The notes under the pieces: model-generated | The model's database searches: none | What the model was told of the DNA's origin: nothing | The model's input: only the letters and a program-made list of their open reading frames with translations | Position numbers and translations under genes: made by a program | Virus record (IMG/VR): IMGVR_UViG_3300032268_000397 | Direction: 5' to 3' (one strand) | From: an uncultured virus (IMG/VR IMGVR_UViG_3300032268_000397) | Lineage: Duplodnaviria; Heunggongvirae; Uroviricota; Caudoviricetes | Length of the DNA: 20,000 bases | Part shown: in pieces, positions 2,478 through 19,739 of the stretch | Numbering within the stretch: the stretch's first letter is position 1 | How the letters are laid out: each line of letters opens with the position of its first letter

Positions 2478-3485
2478 TTAGAATGAGCCTAGAATAATTC
2501 TACGGTTATCTAACACGCCAAAGCCAAGTTCCGCAAAGCCATAGTAACCGGCTCTTTGCTGTCTGTGAAGAGTAGGATCTTCGAATACCTGTAGCTGTTC
2601 CTTAACGGGCATTACAAAACTGTCCTTAGTTGACTGATCAAGACCAACGACTAATTCTAGATCGTTTGTCTGAACATTACCACCAAGCTGTGAGGTAAAG
2701 AATGTCTGATATTCCTGACCTTCGCCTAGTTCGTCAAGATCATGGAGGTTCACACCGTAGATTCTGGTGATGGGAGCGCCATCGCCGGAAGCGTTGTAAA
2801 TCTCACGACGAGTTACTTCGTCAATCTGATCAAGACCCCAATTACGAACATCCTCTAAAGCTTCTGGAGAAACATAGAGATCAGTTAGGCGACCACGACC
2901 AACTGATGCACTATTACCACCAGAATTACGACGCATTACTGTCTGGAGAAGAGAAACAAGTCTCTTGCTGAAAAGGCCAGCAGTTGCATCGGCATCAAAA
3001 ACAAGAATGTTACGATCAACGCCAGCAGCTAGAAGAGTGTGCCAGCCATCGTCATTCATCTTCTTTGTAAAGCCAGCTTCCATAACTTGCATGGCGCGTG
3101 ACACCACATCCCAACGAGCATCGCGGGCATAACGAAGAAGATAATCAATTGAAGAAGTGATACTATATGTTGGAATCATCACATAGTCACTCTCAACTGA
3201 ACGTTCTGGAATTCTACCGTGGCCGGGATTAGTATAAGCAACATGGTCGCCTTCTAAGCCGGGAGCCACAAGGTCTAATGGAAACTCAGTGTTGGCACCG
3301 GGTTCTACATTAATGGTTTCAAAGATGTTACCAAGAATGTTACCGACAAGAATGCCCTTACGTAAGGGTAGTTCCAGTGCTTTAGCAAACTCTCTTTGAG
3401 CAGCTTGAGCAACATTGATATCCGCATCCCCTGACTTACGTAGGAGACTGATGAACTCATCACTAGGTCTATTATTAATTGGCAT
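2478..3485 (-). CDS. Major capsid protein (HK97 fold, probable)
   Basis: 335 aa; order portal-protease/scaffold-decoration-this gene; strong AGGAG RBS; followed by a terminator; C-terminal GYYGFAELGFGVLD typical of capsid proteins. Confidence 0.85.
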   Translation of the reverse strand: MPINNRPSDEFISLLRKSGDADINVAQAAQREFAKALELPLRKGILVGNILGNIFETINVEPGANTEFPLDLVAPGLEGDHVAYTNPGHGRIPERSVESDYVMIPTYSITSSIDYLLRYARDARWDVVSRAMQVMEAGFTKKMNDDGWHTLLAAGVDRNILVFDADATAGLFSKRLVSLLQTVMRRNSGGNSASVGRGRLTDLYVSPEALEDVRNWGLDQIDEVTRREIYNASGDGAPITRIYGVNLHDLDELGEGQEYQTFFTSQLGGNVQTNDLELVVGLDQSTKDSFVMPVKEQLQVFEDPTLHRQQRAGYYGFAELGFGVLDNRRIILGSF

Positions 3486-7524: not shown

Positions 7525-9501
7525 TTAATACACATCTTTCATAGTGTCAGTAAACCAGCTTGGGCCAGAATAGTAATCTTCATCCTTGTTCTTCTTTTGA
7601 TAATCTCCATTAGCAAATCCGCCATAAAAATTGTATTCGTGAGCAGTCGGTGTTCTTTGTATTGTACGCGCAGCCATGTTAGCCATTAACAATGCAGAGT
7701 ATCTATCTTTTCTGATCTTATTTTTTTTGCCAGTACGAACTAAAACTTCTGGAGTGTCCCATCTATCTCTACCATTAGAAGTTTGAGTCATTTGTATCAT
7801 AGATAATTCATCTTTTAGTTCCTCAATCTCAATTACGCATTCTTCTAAAGTGTCAAACATTCGACTTCTAGATATATCTTCTGATTCAGATATAGCCAAA
7901 CTAATAGCGTCAAAATCTGGGAACAGTAGAACCTTGTCTTCAAAATCCTTTCTCATTCCATGATTAGCTTCTGCTAGCCATTCATGTCTAGCAAATTGAC
8001 ACATCTCTAATATGTGTAGTCCGCGCTCATCGTCTGTATCCTTTGGTTTACTATCTTCAATAGTAGGCCACACTAGAAATTCTCCAGGTTTTAATTTATC
8101 TTTATCGTGCAACGATTCCATGACTGCTATACCGCCGCCCTGCGCGTCAATAGAAACGTGTAGGCATGGAAATAGCTGCATTAAATCTCTAATTTTTCTA
8201 GCACAATATGAGTAGAAGTCTGTTTCAGATACATAGCCCTTTTTAACTTTTTCTTTATGCTCTGTTCGCGTAGTTGTCCAACAATGTACTATTTTTCTAT
8301 AGTTACCATCTAGTTCTAAAACAACAATACTAAAATTATCAACTTCTGAAGCAGGGTCTACGCCGTATACATAACGCTTTTCTTTATTACCAATTAAAGA
8401 TGCGTTGAAATGTATTGTGTTGCCGTTACTATCTATAATGTTATTAGATACTGAAGCAATACAGGATTCTACCAATGATCTTTTAAAAAACCCTTGAGAG
8501 TCTCTTGTAAAACAAGCTCCGTACTCCATTTGGTAAATACCAGTATGTACAGTCGCTTTAGATCTTGCTACTTGATCGGCATCCATAAAGCCTTTAGGTA
8601 GCAATTCATAAGGTATACGTATTATAGAATATTGCTTCCAATCAAAATTTTCTGGAGGATCTTCTCCAAAAATTTCGCGTAACATATTTGCATCACCCTT
8701 ACTTTTAATTATAGATTTCCACTTTTTCCAATAAGTAGCAAAGTGATTAAAATCATAGTAAGCAGTTCCAGATAAAATAATTTGATTGTCTTTTTTGATC
8801 TCTACAGGTTTATCAAGATCAATACCTAACTCTATGGCTTTTTGCTCTGCCGCCAATCTCTTTACGTTCTCTACTGGGTTAGCACTTACAGCAGCGAAAC
8901 CGGCAACAACGTTTTCGAAAATTTCTCTTGGAACAGACGCGAATTCGTCACATATGATATCATTGGCACGTTGACCTCTAATCTTTTGACCATCACCTAA
9001 AGGTAAACAGGTTATAGTGCTGTCATTAAGCTTAAGAGTACAACGATCAGTATCTCTTCTTGGGCCACTATCTCCATCGCAAACATCTCTAAGCATTGGA
9101 GAATTGTTCCATATCGTTTCCATGTATTCAAACAATATTTTGGACTGACGAAAAGCGGCACCAACAATAACAATTTTTCTTTTTGGTAGTATTAATGCGC
9201 GCAGTATGGAATATAATGAAAGCATAAAAGACTTTCCAGCACCGCGAGTAGCGATAAGCATAGGGAATTTACGCTCCCATAGTTCTCTTAAAATCAAAGA
9301 TTGAGATGGAAGAAGTTGAGTATTTAATATATGCTTGGCTATAAATGGAAGATAGTCGGGCTGGGTCATAAGCCAAGCTAATCTTATATTAAATTCTTCA
9401 TCATCAGAAGAAACGAATTGCATAGGATTAAAAAAGTTGCTTCCAACTTGATCTAAACCAAGCCATGCTTCTTCTACTATTTTAAGATCATTTACTCCCA
9501 T
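7525..9501 (-). CDS. terL: Terminase large subunit
   Basis: Walker A ATRGAGKS, IRGQRA, Walker B IICDEF, coupling motif LSGT, RNase H-like nuclease YGVDPA and C-terminal KDRYSA. Confidence 0.92.
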   Translation of the reverse strand: MGVNDLKIVEEAWLGLDQVGSNFFNPMQFVSSDDEEFNIRLAWLMTQPDYLPFIAKHILNTQLLPSQSLILRELWERKFPMLIATRGAGKSFMLSLYSILRALILPKRKIVIVGAAFRQSKILFEYMETIWNNSPMLRDVCDGDSGPRRDTDRCTLKLNDSTITCLPLGDGQKIRGQRANDIICDEFASVPREIFENVVAGFAAVSANPVENVKRLAAEQKAIELGIDLDKPVEIKKDNQIILSGTAYYDFNHFATYWKKWKSIIKSKGDANMLREIFGEDPPENFDWKQYSIIRIPYELLPKGFMDADQVARSKATVHTGIYQMEYGACFTRDSQGFFKRSLVESCIASVSNNIIDSNGNTIHFNASLIGNKEKRYVYGVDPASEVDNFSIVVLELDGNYRKIVHCWTTTRTEHKEKVKKGYVSETDFYSYCARKIRDLMQLFPCLHVSIDAQGGGIAVMESLHDKDKLKPGEFLVWPTIEDSKPKDTDDERGLHILEMCQFARHEWLAEANHGMRKDFEDKVLLFPDFDAISLAISESEDISRSRMFDTLEECVIEIEELKDELSMIQMTQTSNGRDRWDTPEVLVRTGKKNKIRKDRYSALLMANMAARTIQRTPTAHEYNFYGGFANGDYQKKNKDEDYYSGPSWFTDTMKDVY

Positions 9502-12168: not shown

Positions 12169-12954
12169 TTAGTCCTTAATTGTATCCGGTGTAAGAAATG
12201 GTTGATCTACTGTATTATCTGCGTAGGTATGATAAGAAGAAAGGCGTTCCTTCTCCTTTTCTGTAGCAAGGCGCATTTTCTCCATCTCAATTCCATATTG
12301 TTTCATTTTGTCTGGATTATCGATTAGCATAGCTACCCAACTAGTAAAGCTTTGCTTAGAGTCCTCCAATCGCTTTATTCTCTGTTCGCGTGTACCCTTC
12401 ATTTCACGAAGTATAGCGGCCTTCTTTGTTTGTAGTTCACGATAGTCTTTATTTAGAGCTTCCTGAGAAGCTCGTAGAGAAGCAGACTGTCTTTCTAGGT
12501 TGAATATATAATCCATGTCTTGTTGATCTTTTTCGCGCTCACGTTCAGTCGCAATCATTTTATCGTAAACGTTTATCTGTACTATATTATCCTTATTACT
12601 TCTAAGGCACCTATTCATTAATATCTCTAATTTTATAACGTCTATTACTTGCAACTCTTCTGTTGGGAAAACGTCATCATTAAACTGTGATATGATTCTA
12701 CCCCAGTGATATTTAAACAACTCTAATTCTTCCTCAGTAAACTGTGAAGCTAATTCACCCCAATAGGGGCGATCTTCTAGTGAGTAAGTGGCCTCTTCTT
12801 CTGGTGATAAATTATGTCTAAATTTTCGCTTAATAAACTGATCTATAGATTCTACATCACGATCTAGCTCTTTAGCTATATCTTCTGGAACCATAGTATT
12901 AATTAGGCGCGAAATAATACGCTCTTCTTCTTTAGAAATACGCCCCTTACGCAT
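12169..12954 (-). CDS. N-terminal HTH plus coiled-coil protein; possible terminase small subunit
   Basis: KGRISKEEERII...PEDIAKELDRDVESI is HTH-like, followed by long helices; upstream of TerL in the same operon. TerS role is inference only. Confidence 0.45.
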   Translation of the reverse strand: MRKGRISKEEERIISRLINTMVPEDIAKELDRDVESIDQFIKRKFRHNLSPEEEATYSLEDRPYWGELASQFTEEELELFKYHWGRIISQFNDDVFPTEELQVIDVIKLEILMNRCLRSNKDNIVQINVYDKMIATEREREKDQQDMDYIFNLERQSASLRASQEALNKDYRELQTKKAAILREMKGTREQRIKRLEDSKQSFTSWVAMLIDNPDKMKQYGIEMEKMRLATEKEKERLSSYHTYADNTVDQPFLTPDTIKD

Positions 12955-13435
12955 TATTTATATTCTCCATTATTTCCTTTATTAGAGCGACTATTTTTTC
13001 CCTTTTAGCTTTTGTCATGGCAACGTTGTTAATAAACTTAAGGTAATCTGAACGATAGCGCGCTGGCAAGCGATCAGAGATTAATTCGTCCATATCTTTA
13101 AAATCAACGCTGTGAGTAGTTTCGTTATTTTCTACATTTTCTTCATAAGATAATTGCATAGGGGAACAGACTCTTCTTTTTTCATAATTATTACTAAATG
13201 AGTAGTTGTCGCGTACAAAGTTTTTTAATCTATTTGACAGATGGACGGATAGGAAGTTTTCAAGGGGGCGCGTTTCATCATAGCGATCTAGCGCATCTAA
13301 GCAAATGATAAAAGACTCTTGCTTAATATCGTTTATGTCATAACCGTAAAATGTATACTTGGGGGATATTCTATCTATTACTTTATTGATTTGTGCAACC
13401 AGTTCTTCTTCTGTCATGTTTGAAGGTATTTTCAT
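12947..13435 (-). CDS. Phage sigma70-family sigma factor-like protein (region 2)
   Basis: YGYDINDIKQESFIICLDALDRYDETRPLENFLSVHLSNRLKNFVRD matches sigma region 2; start 13435 overlaps the upstream stop (ATGA); region 4 poorly recognisable. Confidence 0.75.
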   Translation of the reverse strand: MKIPSNMTEEELVAQINKVIDRISPKYTFYGYDINDIKQESFIICLDALDRYDETRPLENFLSVHLSNRLKNFVRDNYSFSNNYEKRRVCSPMQLSYEENVENNETTHSVDFKDMDELISDRLPARYRSDYLKFINNVAMTKAKREKIVALIKEIMENINNA

Positions 13436-14055
13436 ATTTTGCGCCATCCTTTACCGCTGTAATATTTTAAACAGTCATCGGCGTTATCATATATAATAAG
13501 CCCCTTAGTCTTTGGCGCATCTTTACAGGAATCATAAGAAGTGGCCCTGCATAAGTCATTAATATTTAGTGATTTTACACTTGAACCAATTCTTCCTAAG
13601 ACACAATTATCATCTAAAGTAACGGCGTCAACTAGGCCAGACTCATTAGAATAAACAACACTATATGGAAATGCGAAAAATTCATCAAGTGAGAGGGGCG
13701 GATCTACGGATAGGGAGATAACTTCCTTGTCTACGCATACCATATTAGTGGGTTGAGTATATACGTTAGCCTGCTTGAGTTCACCGTTGTAGAATAGTGT
13801 GATGGGGCGTAAACGTACTAGGTATGTCTTGTCTAGTATTTTCTTAAACTTACCTATACCGCGCTCACCTATAGAAATGGCATTGGGGGGCGTTAGCTTA
13901 ACTAATGAATATATATAGTGGGACTCATAATCGATTAGTTCAAGAGTCTTTGCTACATTGGGGTCTAGTTGCTCATTTGTTAATTCAAGTAGGTTGCTAG
14001 AGTTAATTACGTATTTAGCTAGGCAATTGTTTAGTGGAAGTTGTTGATGATTCAT
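13432..14055 (-). CDS. Hypothetical protein with C-terminal GLIIYD...KYYSG..W motif
   Basis: About 207 aa ORF; purine-rich RBS before ATG 14055; the C-terminal motif resembles short beta modules of virion fibre proteins. Confidence 0.6.
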   Translation of the reverse strand: MNHQQLPLNNCLAKYVINSSNLLELTNEQLDPNVAKTLELIDYESHYIYSLVKLTPPNAISIGERGIGKFKKILDKTYLVRLRPITLFYNGELKQANVYTQPTNMVCVDKEVISLSVDPPLSLDEFFAFPYSVVYSNESGLVDAVTLDDNCVLGRIGSSVKSLNINDLCRATSYDSCKDAPKTKGLIIYDNADDCLKYYSGKGWRKI

Positions 14056-14188
14056 CCTTTTTCCCTTCATCCAGTAATAAAGATTCTAGTGGGCGATCCT
14101 CTTTCTCTAAGTCTTCAATAATAGAAGTGTTTAGACTTGCATTGGCGCGACAGTGTAATTGCGATTCAACTAATTTTGGTTCATTCAT
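14015..14188 (-). CDS. Small hypothetical protein, first gene of the leftward operon
   Basis: AAGGAG RBS upstream of ATG 14188 (MNEPKLVESQ...), 57 aa. Confidence 0.6.
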   Translation of the reverse strand: MNEPKLVESQLHCRANASLNTSIIEDLEKEDRPLESLLLDEGKKDESSTTSTKQLPS

Positions 14189-14206
14189 ATTATTTCTCCT
14201 TACCGT

Positions 14207-14215
14207 ATTATACAC
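14207..14215 (-). promoter_or_regulatory. Leftward promoter motif GTGTATAAT
   Basis: Variant of the recurring GTGTAT(T/A)A motif just upstream of the RBS of the first minus-strand gene. Confidence 0.55.
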
Positions 14216-14355
14216 TGTTTGGTGCCTTTTGTTGCGCTTGGGGGCGATGAGGGAGGATTGGGTAGTACATTACGTTAATAATTTTGAATCGTGAATGAAC
14301 TACCCCGGCCCAAAGGCATAGTCAGCCCACTTTATCTATTGAAGATAAAACCCCC

Positions 14356-14376
14356 CAGTGTCAGTGTCAGTGTCAG
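14356..14376. repeat. Tandem hexamer (CAGTGT) x3.5
   Basis: cagtgtcagtgtcagtgtcag read directly, at the strand switch. Confidence 0.9.
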
Positions 14377-14381
14377 CTACA

Positions 14382-14459
14382 TAAGTGTTTGGTATATAAG
14401 GACTTACATCGCATATTGTACGCTTGATCGGTCGTAAGTCTTTATATATCAATAACTTA
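14382..14459. repeat. Double-palindrome element, copy 1
   Basis: TAAG-N17-CTTA at 14382-14406 and 14435-14459 (53-bp offset). Confidence 0.9.
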
Positions 14460-14472
14460 CGTAAAGAGTGTT

Positions 14473-14506
14473 TGGCATAGGTCTTGCTATAGCAAACGGT
14501 ATGCCA
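14473..14506. promoter_or_regulatory. Face-to-face pair of sigma54 (-24/-12)-like sites
   Basis: Plus strand TGGCATAGGTCTTGCT (14473-14488); minus strand TGGCATACCGTTTGCT (14506-14491). Both are GG-N10-GC. Confidence 0.65.
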
Positions 14507-14571
14507 AGTATAGGGAAAAGGGAAAGAAAGTTTTGTCAAAATCTCTTGACAATATTATTTGGATTTTTCTC

Positions 14572-14607
14572 TTGCAAGCTAAAGAATGTTTGGTATAATG
14601 TCGATAT
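14572..14607 (+). promoter_or_regulatory. sigma70 promoter with nested sigma28-like motif
   Basis: TTGCAA-N16-TATAAT with TG extension; TAAAG-N15-GTCGATAT. Confidence 0.7.
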
Positions 14608-14635
14608 AAGAAGTAAGAAAGAAAGAGAAGAGAAA

Positions 14636-14854
14636 ATGGAAAAAGCAACCTCAGTCAACAGTTTCATCAACAGTCTCCCCAAGATTACCCAGAAGAAAGT
14701 CTGGAAGGTAATCGATCAGAATGGTACGGTTGTACAGTATGTCGGGGCTACCGATAATCGGAAAAGCTCTGCACAAGCGTATATCGATCATAAGTACGCT
14801 GGTCAAAAGCTTACGCTGACCTTCTCGCACTTCAAGGGATTGATGACCCTCTAA
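14636..14854 (+). CDS. Hypothetical early protein (72 aa, basic)
   Basis: MEKATSVNSF... start chosen downstream of the promoter and a purine-rich leader instead of the ORF-track start 14468. Confidence 0.7.
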   Translation: MEKATSVNSFINSLPKITQKKVWKVIDQNGTVVQYVGATDNRKSSAQAYIDHKYAGQKLTLTFSHFKGLMTL

Positions 14855-14863
14855 TAGAGGGGG

Positions 14864-14891
14864 TTGACACGAAGAAAAAACTTGCTAGAAT
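14864..14891 (+). promoter_or_regulatory. sigma70 promoter
   Basis: TTGACA-N16-TAGAAT with TG extension, preceded by a CCCTCT-AAT-AGAGGG hairpin. Confidence 0.75.
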
Positions 14892-14916
14892 AAACACACA
14901 AGAAAGAGAGACTCTA

Positions 14917-15033
14917 ATGATTACGGTTATCGAATACGCCCAACTGTTTGCCCTTATTACGTTTGCTGGTTTCATGTCCTACACTGCTCACGAAGTGGGT
15001 AACGCTGTTCAAGATATGTTCGATGAAATGTGA
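14917..15033 (+). CDS. Small hydrophobic peptide (38 aa)
   Basis: MITVIEYAQLFALITFAGFMSYTAHEVGNAVQDMFDEM; has its own promoter and exactly fills the gap to the next promoter. Confidence 0.6.
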   Translation: MITVIEYAQLFALITFAGFMSYTAHEVGNAVQDMFDEM

Positions 15034-15062
15034 TTGACACAGCAAAAGAAGTTTGATAGAAT
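15034..15062 (+). promoter_or_regulatory. sigma70 promoter
   Basis: TTGACA-N17-TAGAAT with TG extension. Confidence 0.8.
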
Positions 15063-15102
15063 ACACACACAAGAGAACGATAACCCAATAGGATAGAAAA
15101 CA

Positions 15103-15423
15103 ATGGCTACCAAATTCCCCATCATCGAAAATGCCAAGCGTCAAGCCCGTATGTGCTTCCTTGGAATGGCAATCCCAACAGAGGTAAAGAACATTGACGG
15201 TGAGATGATTCAAGTTGAAAAGGTACTAAAGTTCAATCGTAAAGCCTTGAAGAATCTTGGTAAGGTAACAAAAGAAAAGATTGACAAGCGATACTCTGGT
15301 GGTGACGATACTATGATCGTTCCAGTAGGTAAGCCGGGATCGCGTGAACGTGTTGAAGAATTAGCCAAGCAGTACAGCGTTGTACAGCGTATGGAAATTA
15401 GCCCCTTTTCATTTAAGGAGTAA
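15103..15423 (+). CDS. Hypothetical early protein (106 aa)
   Basis: ORF with AGGA RBS downstream of a promoter. Confidence 0.75.
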   Translation: MATKFPIIENAKRQARMCFLGMAIPTEVKNIDGEMIQVEKVLKFNRKALKNLGKVTKEKIDKRYSGGDDTMIVPVGKPGSRERVEELAKQYSVVQRMEISPFSFKE

Positions 15424-15712: not shown

Positions 15713-15730
15713 TACAACCTTTGCTTGACG

Positions 15731-15808
15731 TAAAGCCTTGTGCCTAAAAGACTTAGGGCAAGGCGGGCGAGGCGAATTCGCCGTAAGTGTTTATGCCACA
15801 ATGGTTTA
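15731..15808. repeat. Double-palindrome element, copy 2
   Basis: TAAA-N17-CTTA 15731-15755 and TAAG-N17-TTTA 15784-15808; GC-rich 28-bp spacer. Confidence 0.9.
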
Positions 15809-15839
15809 TGACAATCTTATTTTTCCTTGATTTTTCCTC

Positions 15840-15867
15840 TTGACGATGCCGATACATACTGTATAAT
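15840..15867 (+). promoter_or_regulatory. sigma70 promoter with internal GCCGATAC
   Basis: TTGACG-N16-TATAAT. Confidence 0.75.
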
Positions 15868-16606: not shown

Positions 16607-16840
16607 ATGATTAGTTATAGTCACCAGTATTTAGATATTAGGGCAGTTTGTGAACATAATGAACTCGACGTTGAATTAGTAATGCAGCATCTTTGCGATA
16701 GCGACCTTTCATTTGGAAGTAACTATGATACTTTAATATCTCAGCATCATCTACAGAGTATTATTAACGAGGGATTTGATAACGTGCAGTTAGACTTTGG
16801 TGGACATGATGATACTGTCGTTATTAGCCTAGGAAGTTGA
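16607..16840 (+). CDS. Small acidic hypothetical protein (77 aa)
   Basis: AGGAG RBS; stop codon abuts repeat copy 3. Confidence 0.7.
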   Translation: MISYSHQYLDIRAVCEHNELDVELVMQHLCDSDLSFGSNYDTLISQHHLQSIINEGFDNVQLDFGGHDDTVVISLGS

Positions 16841-16842
16841 CG

Positions 16843-16920
16843 TAAGTCCTTGACCCTAAAAGACTTAGGGCAAGGGCGGCGGGCCGCATTTGTCGCAAGT
16901 CTTTATTTGATAAGGGTTTA
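16843..16920. repeat. Double-palindrome element, copy 3
   Basis: TAAG-N17-CTTA 16843-16867 and CAAG-N17-TTTA 16896-16920. Confidence 0.9.
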
Positions 16921-16950: not shown

Positions 16951-16987
16951 TTGACAACTAAACTTTTGCTCTGTATAATGCCGATAT
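16951..16987 (+). promoter_or_regulatory. Consensus sigma70 promoter with nested sigma28-like motif
   Basis: TTGACA-N17-TATAAT with an A/T-tract UP element; TAAAC-N16-GCCGATAT. Confidence 0.85.
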
Positions 16988-17007
16988 AGAAAGTAAGGAG
17001 AAATCAA

Positions 17008-17475: not shown

Positions 17476-17681
17476 TGTTGCATAGATTCTATGATATCAA
17501 GGCAGAAAATGAACAGTTCGAAGAGTTTGTTCATGATAAAGAATATGTCTTGCATGTACCAGAATATGACATGTCAACCCCTCTTGAGAGGCAGGAGGGT
17601 ATAGGATACATGCTCGAAATTCTGACTGCCGCAAGTGGCGTGAACGTTTGTTCATTCAAGGTAGATCAGAAGATCGCTTGA
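17475..17681 (+). CDS. Hypothetical protein (68 aa)
   Basis: TAATG overlap with the upstream gene; stop abuts repeat copy 4. Confidence 0.7.
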   Translation: MLHRFYDIKAENEQFEEFVHDKEYVLHVPEYDMSTPLERQEGIGYMLEILTAASGVNVCSFKVDQKIA

Positions 17682-17683
17682 CC

Positions 17684-17761
17684 TAAAGCCTTGTCTCTAA
17701 ACGACTTAGAGCAAGGCGGGCGGGCTGGGTTGATCGTAAGTCTTTTCATATCAAGTATTTA
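17684..17761. repeat. Double-palindrome element, copy 4
   Basis: TAAA-N17-CTTA 17684-17708 and TAAG-N17-TTTA 17737-17761. Confidence 0.9.
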
Positions 17762-17770
17762 GGACAAAAT

Positions 17771-19351: not shown

Positions 19352-19424
19352 GGGGGTGTAACTTAGCGACTAAAGTAGCGGTCTTTTAAACCGTTTATCG
19401 TGGGTTTGAGTCCCACCGCCCCCA
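19352..19424 (+). tRNA. tRNA-Lys (anticodon UUU), CCA not encoded
   Basis: Acceptor GGGGGTG/CGCCCCC plus discriminator A; D-stem ACTT/AAGT; anticodon arm GCGGT-CTTTTAA-ACCGT; T-arm GTGGG-TTTGAGT-CCCAC. Confidence 0.9.
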
Positions 19425-19521: not shown

Positions 19522-19654
19522 CTTTCTATATAATGAGTATGTGATGGGTGATACAGACTATTACGAAGATCAAGAAAATAGACAAACTCAAGTGTGGGAC
19601 TACTACGCTCTCTACCATGATGAAGAGATTGAAGACATAGACGTAAGTGATTGA
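19511..19654 (+). CDS. Small acidic protein (47 aa)
   Basis: MENNFLYNEYVMGDTDYYEDQE...DEEIEDIDVSD; GGGGA RBS; ends inside repeat copy 5. Confidence 0.6.
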   Translation: MENNFLYNEYVMGDTDYYEDQENRQTQVWDYYALYHDEEIEDIDVSD

Positions 19655-19721
19655 TAAATAAGGACTTATGGATGATCGGGGCCGCCGCGTTGATCCTAAG
19701 TCTTTATGTACCATAGACTTA
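19644..19721. repeat. Double-palindrome element, copy 5
   Basis: TAAG-N17-CTTA 19644-19668 and 19697-19721. Confidence 0.9.
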
Positions 19722-19739
19722 CAGCAAATAAAGATTTTT

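Follow-up and report, generated by a model that had tools for sequence, protein, structure and literature searches.

Facing sigma54-type sites upstream of an early sigma70 promoter in an uncultured tailed phage: candidate silent docking sites for host RNA polymerase

The window, by which we mean the whole 20,000-nt stretch of DNA that was analysed, is part of a large uncultured tailed phage. Its leftward genes include a probable major capsid gene (2478-3485, a weak match), a terminase gene (7525-9501), Clp-type protease and GDP-mannose dehydratase genes, and a gene for a phage sigma70-family factor (12947-13447, minus strand; weak matches below curated cut-offs). The first leftward ORF (14015-14188, minus strand; 57 aa) heads the operon containing the sigma70-like, terminase, and capsid genes. 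Small rightward genes begin with a first early gene at 14636-14854 (plus strand), which encodes 72 aa of no known family and returned matches at 0.80 only in a protein atlas search. A tRNA gene lies at 19352-19424 (64 bits in Rfam). Public sequencing runs containing this DNA are labelled metagenome, lake water, or freshwater, and the nearest relative is a 135-kb contig (G001/G002, L123). No cultured relative was found by capsid protein or by the DNA of the promoter cassette described below, the latter giving 22 short chance matches only.

Between the first leftward ORF and the first early gene, positions 14473-14506 read TGGCA-N6-TTGC-N4-GCAA-N6-TGCCA, i.e., two overlapping, facing matches to the -24/-12 elements of sigma54 promoters. 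The forward site (14473-14487, plus strand) has its -24 GG at 14474-14475 and its -12 GC at 14486-14487, and the backward site (14492-14506, minus strand) has the same bases at 14505-14504 and 14493-14492. Both show GG-N10-GC in a TGGCAY..TTGCW context. A four-base A/T centre (14488-14491) separates the -12 boxes and supplies positions -11 and -10 for both sites, with T at -11 in each and hence an A:T pair directly 3' of the -12 GC. Self-complementarity extends to 26 of the 34 bases, the exceptions being two 4-nt spacers (14480-14483 and 14496-14499). With the GC set at -13/-12, the predicted transcription starts are at about 14499 for the forward site and at about 14480 for the backward site, each falling inside the opposite site; the latter start is 292 nt from the first leftward ATG (14188).

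The strict pattern TGGCA-N6-TTGC was matched twice in the 20 kb, both times at the pair, as compared with 0.13 ± 0.39 expected from 200 dinucleotide shuffles (maximum 3). Allowing one mismatch gave three matches in the window against 1.01 expected, and 16 of 200 shuffles reached three. Scoring with an RpoN matrix, proposed as a check in the original prediction, ranked the pair first and second in the window (16.8 and 9.8, with 8.2 next); the matrix was built from 24 relatives' sites with an upstream motif and so is not independent of the phage family. The facing near-consensus boxes that had been predicted (from a string corresponding to 14472-14507) are therefore real and constitute the only strict matches in the window, although both sites read TGGCAT and not the TGGCAC of the quoted consensus. 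The pair had also been placed 14 bp past a palindrome copy, and the forward site in fact begins 13 nt after the second of two dyad cores (14435-14459). Contigs assembled from four public DNA runs span the region. One (X1) contains the stretch unchanged and may be its source; X2 and X5 cover the pair and have 14357-14434 replaced, and among the differences listed, those near the pair are at 14466, 14469, 14509, 14510, and 14520, with none inside it. We conclude that the pair is a real feature, most likely consisting of sites for host sigma54 holoenzyme.

The pair belongs to a repeated early-promoter cassette in which two dyads spaced by 53 bp are combined with optional sigma54 sites and a sigma70 promoter, followed by a purine-rich leader and a small gene. 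In the cassette at the pair, the IHF-like dyad 1 (14382-14406; YAA-N4-TT-N7-AA-N4-TTR) has other letters in the strain contigs, and dyad 2 (14435-14459) matches the E. coli IHF consensus perfectly at 14447-14459. A conserved A/T tract with a TGTCAA-N6-TTGACA dyad (14528-14551, the dyad itself at 14534-14551), which served as a search anchor, follows the backward site and precedes the sigma70 promoter. The sigma70-type promoter of the first early gene (14572-14599, plus strand) has 10 of 12 matches and a TG before its -10 element, and the outer end of the backward site is 65 nt upstream of its -35 element. The TGTCAA-N6-TTGACA dyad is a possible site of a further regulator. A leftward sigma70 promoter arising from the reverse TTGACA (14539-14534) was rejected by eye, having a 21-nt spacer and being absent from promoter prediction. 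The left cassette edge is formed by a C-run and then a short AGTGTC tandem (14352-14377), and the strain contigs differ from 14357 on. Many early sigma70 promoters have the word GYCGATA in or just after them, as at 14600-14612, 15846-15856, and 16981-16990 in the window.

All nine strict dyads of the window fall in five intergenic cassettes (18 matches on both strands versus 0.68 ± 1.14 expected). Sigma54 sites are found in the first cassette only; the other double-dyad cassettes (15725-15810, 16837-16920, 17677-17765, and 19640-19725) precede sigma70-type promoters without them. At 19640-19725, a GCAAAT remnant occupies the position of the backward site in relatives. Across the family, the backward site is the core part and the forward site is optional. 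Among 60 cassettes found via the downstream anchor, 56 had the backward site, 29 the forward site, and 27 both. In a set of 127 cassettes defined by dyads and sigma70 promoter, anchored loci included, 71 had the backward site, 44 the forward site, 34 both, and 46 neither. Given these 46 cassettes and the four others in the window, the sigma54 part as a whole is dispensable.

The dyads behave as DNA sites rather than RNA stems, showing no covariation in 94 copies and a dyad 1-dyad 2 complementarity of 16.1 versus 15.9 ± 0.14. IHF has the consensus WATCAR-N4-TTR (PMC3897727), and three of the nine window dyads match it perfectly. Most family dyads deviate at 2-3 positions, such that 13 of 121 first dyads and 24 of 121 second dyads had zero or one mismatch. 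IHF-like genes were present in eight family loci (L679:2458-2757, L303, L361, L311, L350, L319, L294, and L299) and were not found in G001 or G003-G006. Thus, the three perfect window copies and the IHF-like genes make IHF a good candidate for the dyad-binding protein, although most copies are off consensus. The IHF-like gene of L679 lies directly behind a sigma54 promoter equipped with the upstream motif, in the early region.

The original prediction favoured two protein sites over a hairpin, and comparison of viral copies supported this choice. We computed column statistics at positions outside the search pattern for 104 distinct viral 34-mers, or 208 half-sites, among the matches listed. 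In these, the unsearched columns follow the sigma54 consensus, with Y in 205 and then R in 202 of the 208 half-sites, and A/T after the -12 GC in 166. This A:T pair 3' of the -12 GC is the one that holoenzyme opens (PMC4496707). Boxes and spacing are conserved in relatives while spacers and flanks vary, and the GG-N10-GC spacing, whose loss in relatives would have counted against the prediction, is kept. Spacer-to-spacer matches numbered 189 of 624 among the matches listed, below the chance level of 245 ± 12 in shuffles, and it is this lack of covariation that led us to reject a hairpin.

An RNA hairpin, terminator, or cruciform is accordingly very improbable, being already largely refuted by the lack of compensatory change. 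In silico, the stretch is predicted to form a fold (-15.6 and -14.5 kcal/mol; z of -2.9 and -4.9), but this is expected of any inverted repeat. Beyond the spacers, family pairs match at just 1-4 of 7 inner positions, and about half of the cassettes lack the forward arm. The region 14000-15200 has no terminator-like site, and neither compensatory pairs, a U-tract, nor an Rfam match was found at the element. Position 6 is anti-correlated between the halves: in the pairs of L001-L122 it tends to be C in one half and T in the other, and it was identical in 23 of 104 cases versus 51 ± 5 expected among the matches listed, as if perfect palindromes were avoided. A long hairpin between dyad 1 and dyad 2 can be drawn in the window and was discarded as it is not a family trait.

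The exact layout recurs in viruses, where the original prediction had proposed looking for further copies. It was present in at least 122 viral contig stretches, giving 104 distinct 34-mers with full flanks among the matches listed, versus 12 stretches across 596 billion bases of prokaryote genomes. Four of these 12 read as coding coincidences (L278, L279, L285, and L287) and five appear to be viral, with L280 having an identical viral counterpart, L288 resembling a viral locus at 72%, and L282, L283, and L286 carrying 6-10 sites. The remaining three look chromosomal (L281, L284, and L289). L281 (2501-2534), on a Pirellulaceae MAG contig, is a rare chromosomal-looking case in which the facing pair comes right after the stop of an ORF that we read as cysteine synthase-like. 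Viral pairs avoid genes, lying inside ORFs in 6 of 50 cases in viral loci versus 122 of 250 random positions, and 41 of 65 viral loci had at least three sigma54 sites within 500 nt. Over 143 facing pairs, the gap between sites was 3-7 nt in 112, most commonly 4 nt (47), and 0-2 nt was never seen, an absence that fits each site keeping its own -11 and -10 bases. Back-to-back pairs (155) had gap peaks at 8-10, 15-20, and 26-29 nt.

Cultured phages also carry the layout. The Pakpunavirus phages PAK_P1, JG004, EM, and Ab10 have an unannotated facing pair with the same 4-nt gap and variable spacers, in non-coding DNA before the early block, and the pair region was matched by 133 Pseudomonas phage records. 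At the EM locus the double dyad was not matched, and the family's 64-nt link between site and promoter was not seen in Pakpunavirus. A terminal-repeat location for the Ab10 pair was rejected, as it lies 12.5 kb from the right end and outside the 1165-bp repeat. One of three short-query searches of cultured phages gave just a chance match. The first 12 kb of the T5-like Vibrio phage Thalassa have single sites only, among them non-coding pre-early ones at L509:501 and L509:3562, and Vibrio phage D260 has a site cluster that includes a near-consensus facing pair (L511:2716-3033).

The 34-bp palindrome might instead bind a different protein (a dimer of phage or host origin) and resemble sigma54 boxes by chance. 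The sharp gap preference would fit such a dimer, as would the consideration that two holoenzymes could not both fit. However, half-sites also occur alone, in tandem, and back to back, the layout is common to unrelated phages, and half-sites front genes with enhancer-like motifs at -99 to -174. Moreover, we found no RpoN or activator gene in G001-G004 (68-85% complete), nor any RpoN DNA-binding or activator domain. We consider another protein improbable, and on sequence grounds both halves are very probably binding sites of the host sigma54 (RpoN) RNA polymerase holoenzyme.

Sigma54 sites in relatives fall into two classes. In gene-driving promoters, a GCAAAATGC-centred dyad occurs 2-4 times between -99 and -174, and downstream of it come the boxes, an A/T-rich stretch from -11 to -1, a leader, and a gene. 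We take the shape of this dyad to resemble that of NtrC-family activator sites. At least two copies of this upstream motif were found at 13 of 17 lone forward promoters but at none of 112 other sites, comprising 27 paired forward, 24 paired backward, and 61 lone backward sites. In a separate viral scan, a forward site lay 58-90 nt downstream of 25 of 106 doubled motifs, and the reversed control had none. The motif is present in G003 and G005 and was not found at the window junction, in G002, or in the complete G006. Promoters with three GCAAAATGC-centred dyads drive small early genes at L376:10400-10640 (in G005), L378, L297, L301, L148, and other loci. Also in G005, a homolog of the first early gene of the window (51% identity) stands behind a motif-equipped sigma54 promoter. 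A separate recurring group of metagenome loci (L644, L651, L655, L688, and others) combines a sigma54 site with one or two copies of the motif and encodes an acidic protein of 220-270 aa.

The two classes also differ in base composition. Motif-equipped promoters (n = 38) had a mean of 9.2 A/T out of 11 in -11 to -1, with a purine at the predicted +1 in all 38 and T at -15 in just 13. Motif-less sites had 7.0-7.8 A/T in the same stretch and T at -15 in 104 of 113. Motif-less sites are thus closer to consensus and less meltable, a comparison between classes that were set without the A/T criterion and whose copies are related by descent, which makes the p-values calculated for it too small. The least meltable zones (5.4) belong to seven backward sites within reach of an upstream motif. 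At the window pair, we found no copy of the family's motif in the region about 80-170 bp upstream where activator sites would be expected, nor an A/T-rich -11 to -1 followed by a leader and gene.

These properties bear on the proposal, made in the original prediction, that the pair is a mutually exclusive left/right switch between early and late modules. Mutual exclusion would follow from the overlap, but a switch of this kind is contradicted by where the pair occurs. It is found in 22 of 55 non-junction cassettes, most of which have further dyads upstream, and inside early operons of relatives. We examined 1.3 kb at 36 junction rows identified by homologs of the leftward genes. The pair was present in eight rows (seven contigs), an upstream-motif forward promoter in nine, a backward site alone in three, the motif only in one, and none of these in 15, some of which may stop short of the junction; L125, L128, and L129 clearly reach it without any sigma54 site. 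The pair is therefore neither confined to the divergence point nor conserved there. Furthermore, neither window site has the upstream motif of the family's gene-driving promoters, and the first early gene has a sigma70 promoter of its own. The roadblock that had been offered as another option is weakened by intragenic E. coli sigma54 sites, which gave no roadblock (PMC4591121).

A weaker form of the switch would have the sites act as conditional promoters. A host enhancer-binding ATPase would switch the backward site on under some signal, with the forward site competing; the resulting antisense RNA would damp upstream early genes and, at the junction, RNA would run leftward into the sigma-factor and morphogenesis operon. 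This is consistent with the family's use of triple-motif sigma54 promoters for early genes, and with the motif near seven backward sites. A backward site also lies at the L647 junction (around the match at 2172-2254), where it is 131 nt away from the first leftward gene and stands back to back with three motif copies and a forward site. All five junction cassettes in the anchored set carry both sites, and the predicted +1 was a purine at 50 of 61 lone backward sites. Paired backward sites had a purine in just 9 of 24, however, and the predicted +1 of the window's backward site is C. Melting zones are poor, most of all at the seven motif-near sites, the window and G002 lack the upstream motif, and siteless junctions exist. 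The position of the backward site, moreover, is tied to the sigma70 promoter and not to the would-be transcript start in the dyads, and we regard conditional promoters as unlikely.

The tie to the sigma70 promoter is seen in the distances from the backward site to the sigma70 -35 element, which were 21, 32-35, 43-44, 54-56, and 63-66 nt (65 nt in the window). Circular concentration at 10.5 bp was R = 0.89 over 63 cassettes, 0.79 over the 11 distinct values, and 0.84 for the 30 cassettes lacking the anchor. The distance between dyad and backward site was unphased (R = 0.11, n = 71). Hence, the backward site appears keyed to the sigma70 promoter and not to a transcript through the dyads. Because the cassettes share ancestry and some were chosen through the anchor, the phasing may rest on about five indel events, and p-values calculated for it overstate its strength. 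Unrelated phages showed no phasing: 28 of 386 pair ends had an outward sigma70 promoter within 150 nt, with R = 0.27.

The reading we prefer, with a probability of roughly 0.45, is that sigma54 holoenzyme docks silently at these sites and acts in cis on the early sigma70 promoter, beside the IHF-like dyads. From the sequence, its conservation, the absence of the family's upstream motif, and the phasing, we infer binding, silence, and an effect on the sigma70 promoter. Holoenzyme would sit in a stable closed state and normally not fire, the sites lacking an activator site. The backward site stands back to back with the early sigma70 promoter, a whole number of helical turns away from it, which would put the bound complex on a fixed DNA face relative to the sigma70 enzyme. 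The docked complex would most likely tune the sigma70 promoter, help or shielding from silencing being the favoured effects, and the two IHF-like bending sites would act alongside. The forward site is an optional mirror copy that overlaps the melting zone of the backward site. Considering the size of the holoenzyme footprint, the overlap would leave room for a single enzyme in either orientation, and this either-way occupancy may raise overall occupancy and hinder leftward firing.

Silence can be compared with mapped transcription starts in PAK_P3, whose sites are not a facing pair. Upstream of its first early promoter, this phage carries two consensus sites, one backward (50812) and one forward (50946), and its genome has five matches as compared with one in the control. 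Rows P024-P075 of its start table (PMC10914365), compiled under one growth condition and with thresholds, list a sigma70 start at 51049 and nothing between 48439 and 51049, hence no start at the predicted 50786 or 50972. Silent docking is weakened by the seven backward sites near an upstream motif and by the arrangement in L647, and another activator with a different site is conceivable.

Alternatively, the sites may serve as decoys in trans, a role also named in the original prediction, the compact two-way sites soaking up limited sigma54 holoenzyme after genome copying and damping host sigma54 programmes. The enrichment of the layout in viruses over chromosomes and its mostly non-coding location agree with this, as do tight-binding consensus sites lacking an enhancer and frequent arrays in both orientations with regular gaps; the loci with at least three sites within 500 nt fit a sponge better than silent docking. 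A decoy role has also been raised for silent sites in E. coli (PMC4591121). Yet the phage and G002 have 2-3 strict sites each versus 135 mapped in E. coli (PMC4591121), and a sponge acting in trans needs no helical phasing to a sigma70 promoter. A decoy thus seems unlikely as well, and we rank silent docking in cis ahead of conditional promoters, a decoy in trans, another protein, and a hairpin.

Silent docking could be part of something broader, for which our confidence is low: phages may use host sigma54 holoenzyme as a helix-phased architectural factor and not for transcribing. A silent closed complex, oriented backwards and braced by paired IHF bends, would sit two to six helical turns before strong early sigma70 promoters, and early transcription of the incoming genome would be boosted or shielded. 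The facing pair would then be a compact either-way dock that evolved repeatedly in unrelated phages and almost never in chromosomes.

Several known systems share parts of this arrangement. Enhancer-dependent sigma54 promoters such as E. coli zraP and pspG (PMC4591121 Table 1; PMC4496707) have the same boxes, spacing, and A:T pair after the -12 GC, and the motif-equipped promoters of L133 and L335 read like the zraP motif (PMC4591121). Unlike these promoters, the sites described here overlap face to face without an enhancer motif, leader, or gene. Closer in kind are the inactive sites of E. coli (Bonocora et al. 2015, PMC4591121), where sigma54 is bound at most sites while apparently inactive. 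Sites that overlap a further promoter were seen to repress, and a decoy or structural function has been suggested. The inactive sites are bound without an activator. They are mostly intragenic and had no roadblock effect, whereas the phage sites lie between genes, recur in early cassettes, and keep phase with a sigma70 promoter without overlapping it. Overall, the window pair would appear to work like the silent sigma54 sites of bacteria, and it has the features of neither an active promoter nor a switch.

The IHF-assisted sigma54 promoters of the D. vulgaris orp operons (PMC3897727) have IHF-like sites beside the -24/-12 boxes, as here, and among the 38 motif-equipped promoters of relatives, 8 have a dyad no more than 110 nt upstream. 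In contrast to orp, the phage dyads are symmetric, doubled at 53 bp, located downstream of the backward site, and shared with sigma54-less cassettes. The only phage use of sigma54 that we found in print is a sigma54-like promoter of Pseudomonas phage YuA (PMC10914365), a single promoter with no pair. By our own reading, the 50 bases given upstream of the start labelled sigma54 (P015) have sigma70-like -35/-10 elements and no -24/-12 elements at the expected place. The openly accessible papers searched contained no account of phages with facing sigma54 pairs or with backward sites in phase with a promoter. The contrast between two classes of sigma54 site and the phasing to a sigma70 promoter are what was measured here.

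The purpose of bacterial sigma54 sites that are bound but silent, as most are, is open (PMC4591121). In this phage family, silent-looking and gene-driving sites occur side by side and differ in upstream motif, melting zone, -15 base, and phasing, offering a natural comparison for how an unactivated sigma54 complex is used. Because the pair is present in the cultured phages PAK_P1 and JG004, laboratory strains in which to test its binding and function are already available. If silent docking is correct, the early transcription of lytic phages has an unrecognised dependency on host RpoN and IHF.

As to which host this would be, a search of 201 genomes from the phylum of G007 gave no match to the capsid protein, and the doubled upstream motif occurred in 6 of 301 genomes of that phylum, none with a sigma54 site nearby. 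Cluster look-ups gave one 'Proteobacteria' MAG label, possibly from a mis-binned phage contig. The IHF-like protein of L679 offers a weak hint of a Planctomycetota host: when compared with four genomes, it was most similar to two planctomycete MAGs (48% and 44% versus 42% and 32%), and two of its three NCBI-named matches were from Planctomycetota and one from Proteobacteria. RpoN was present in both planctomycete MAGs tested.
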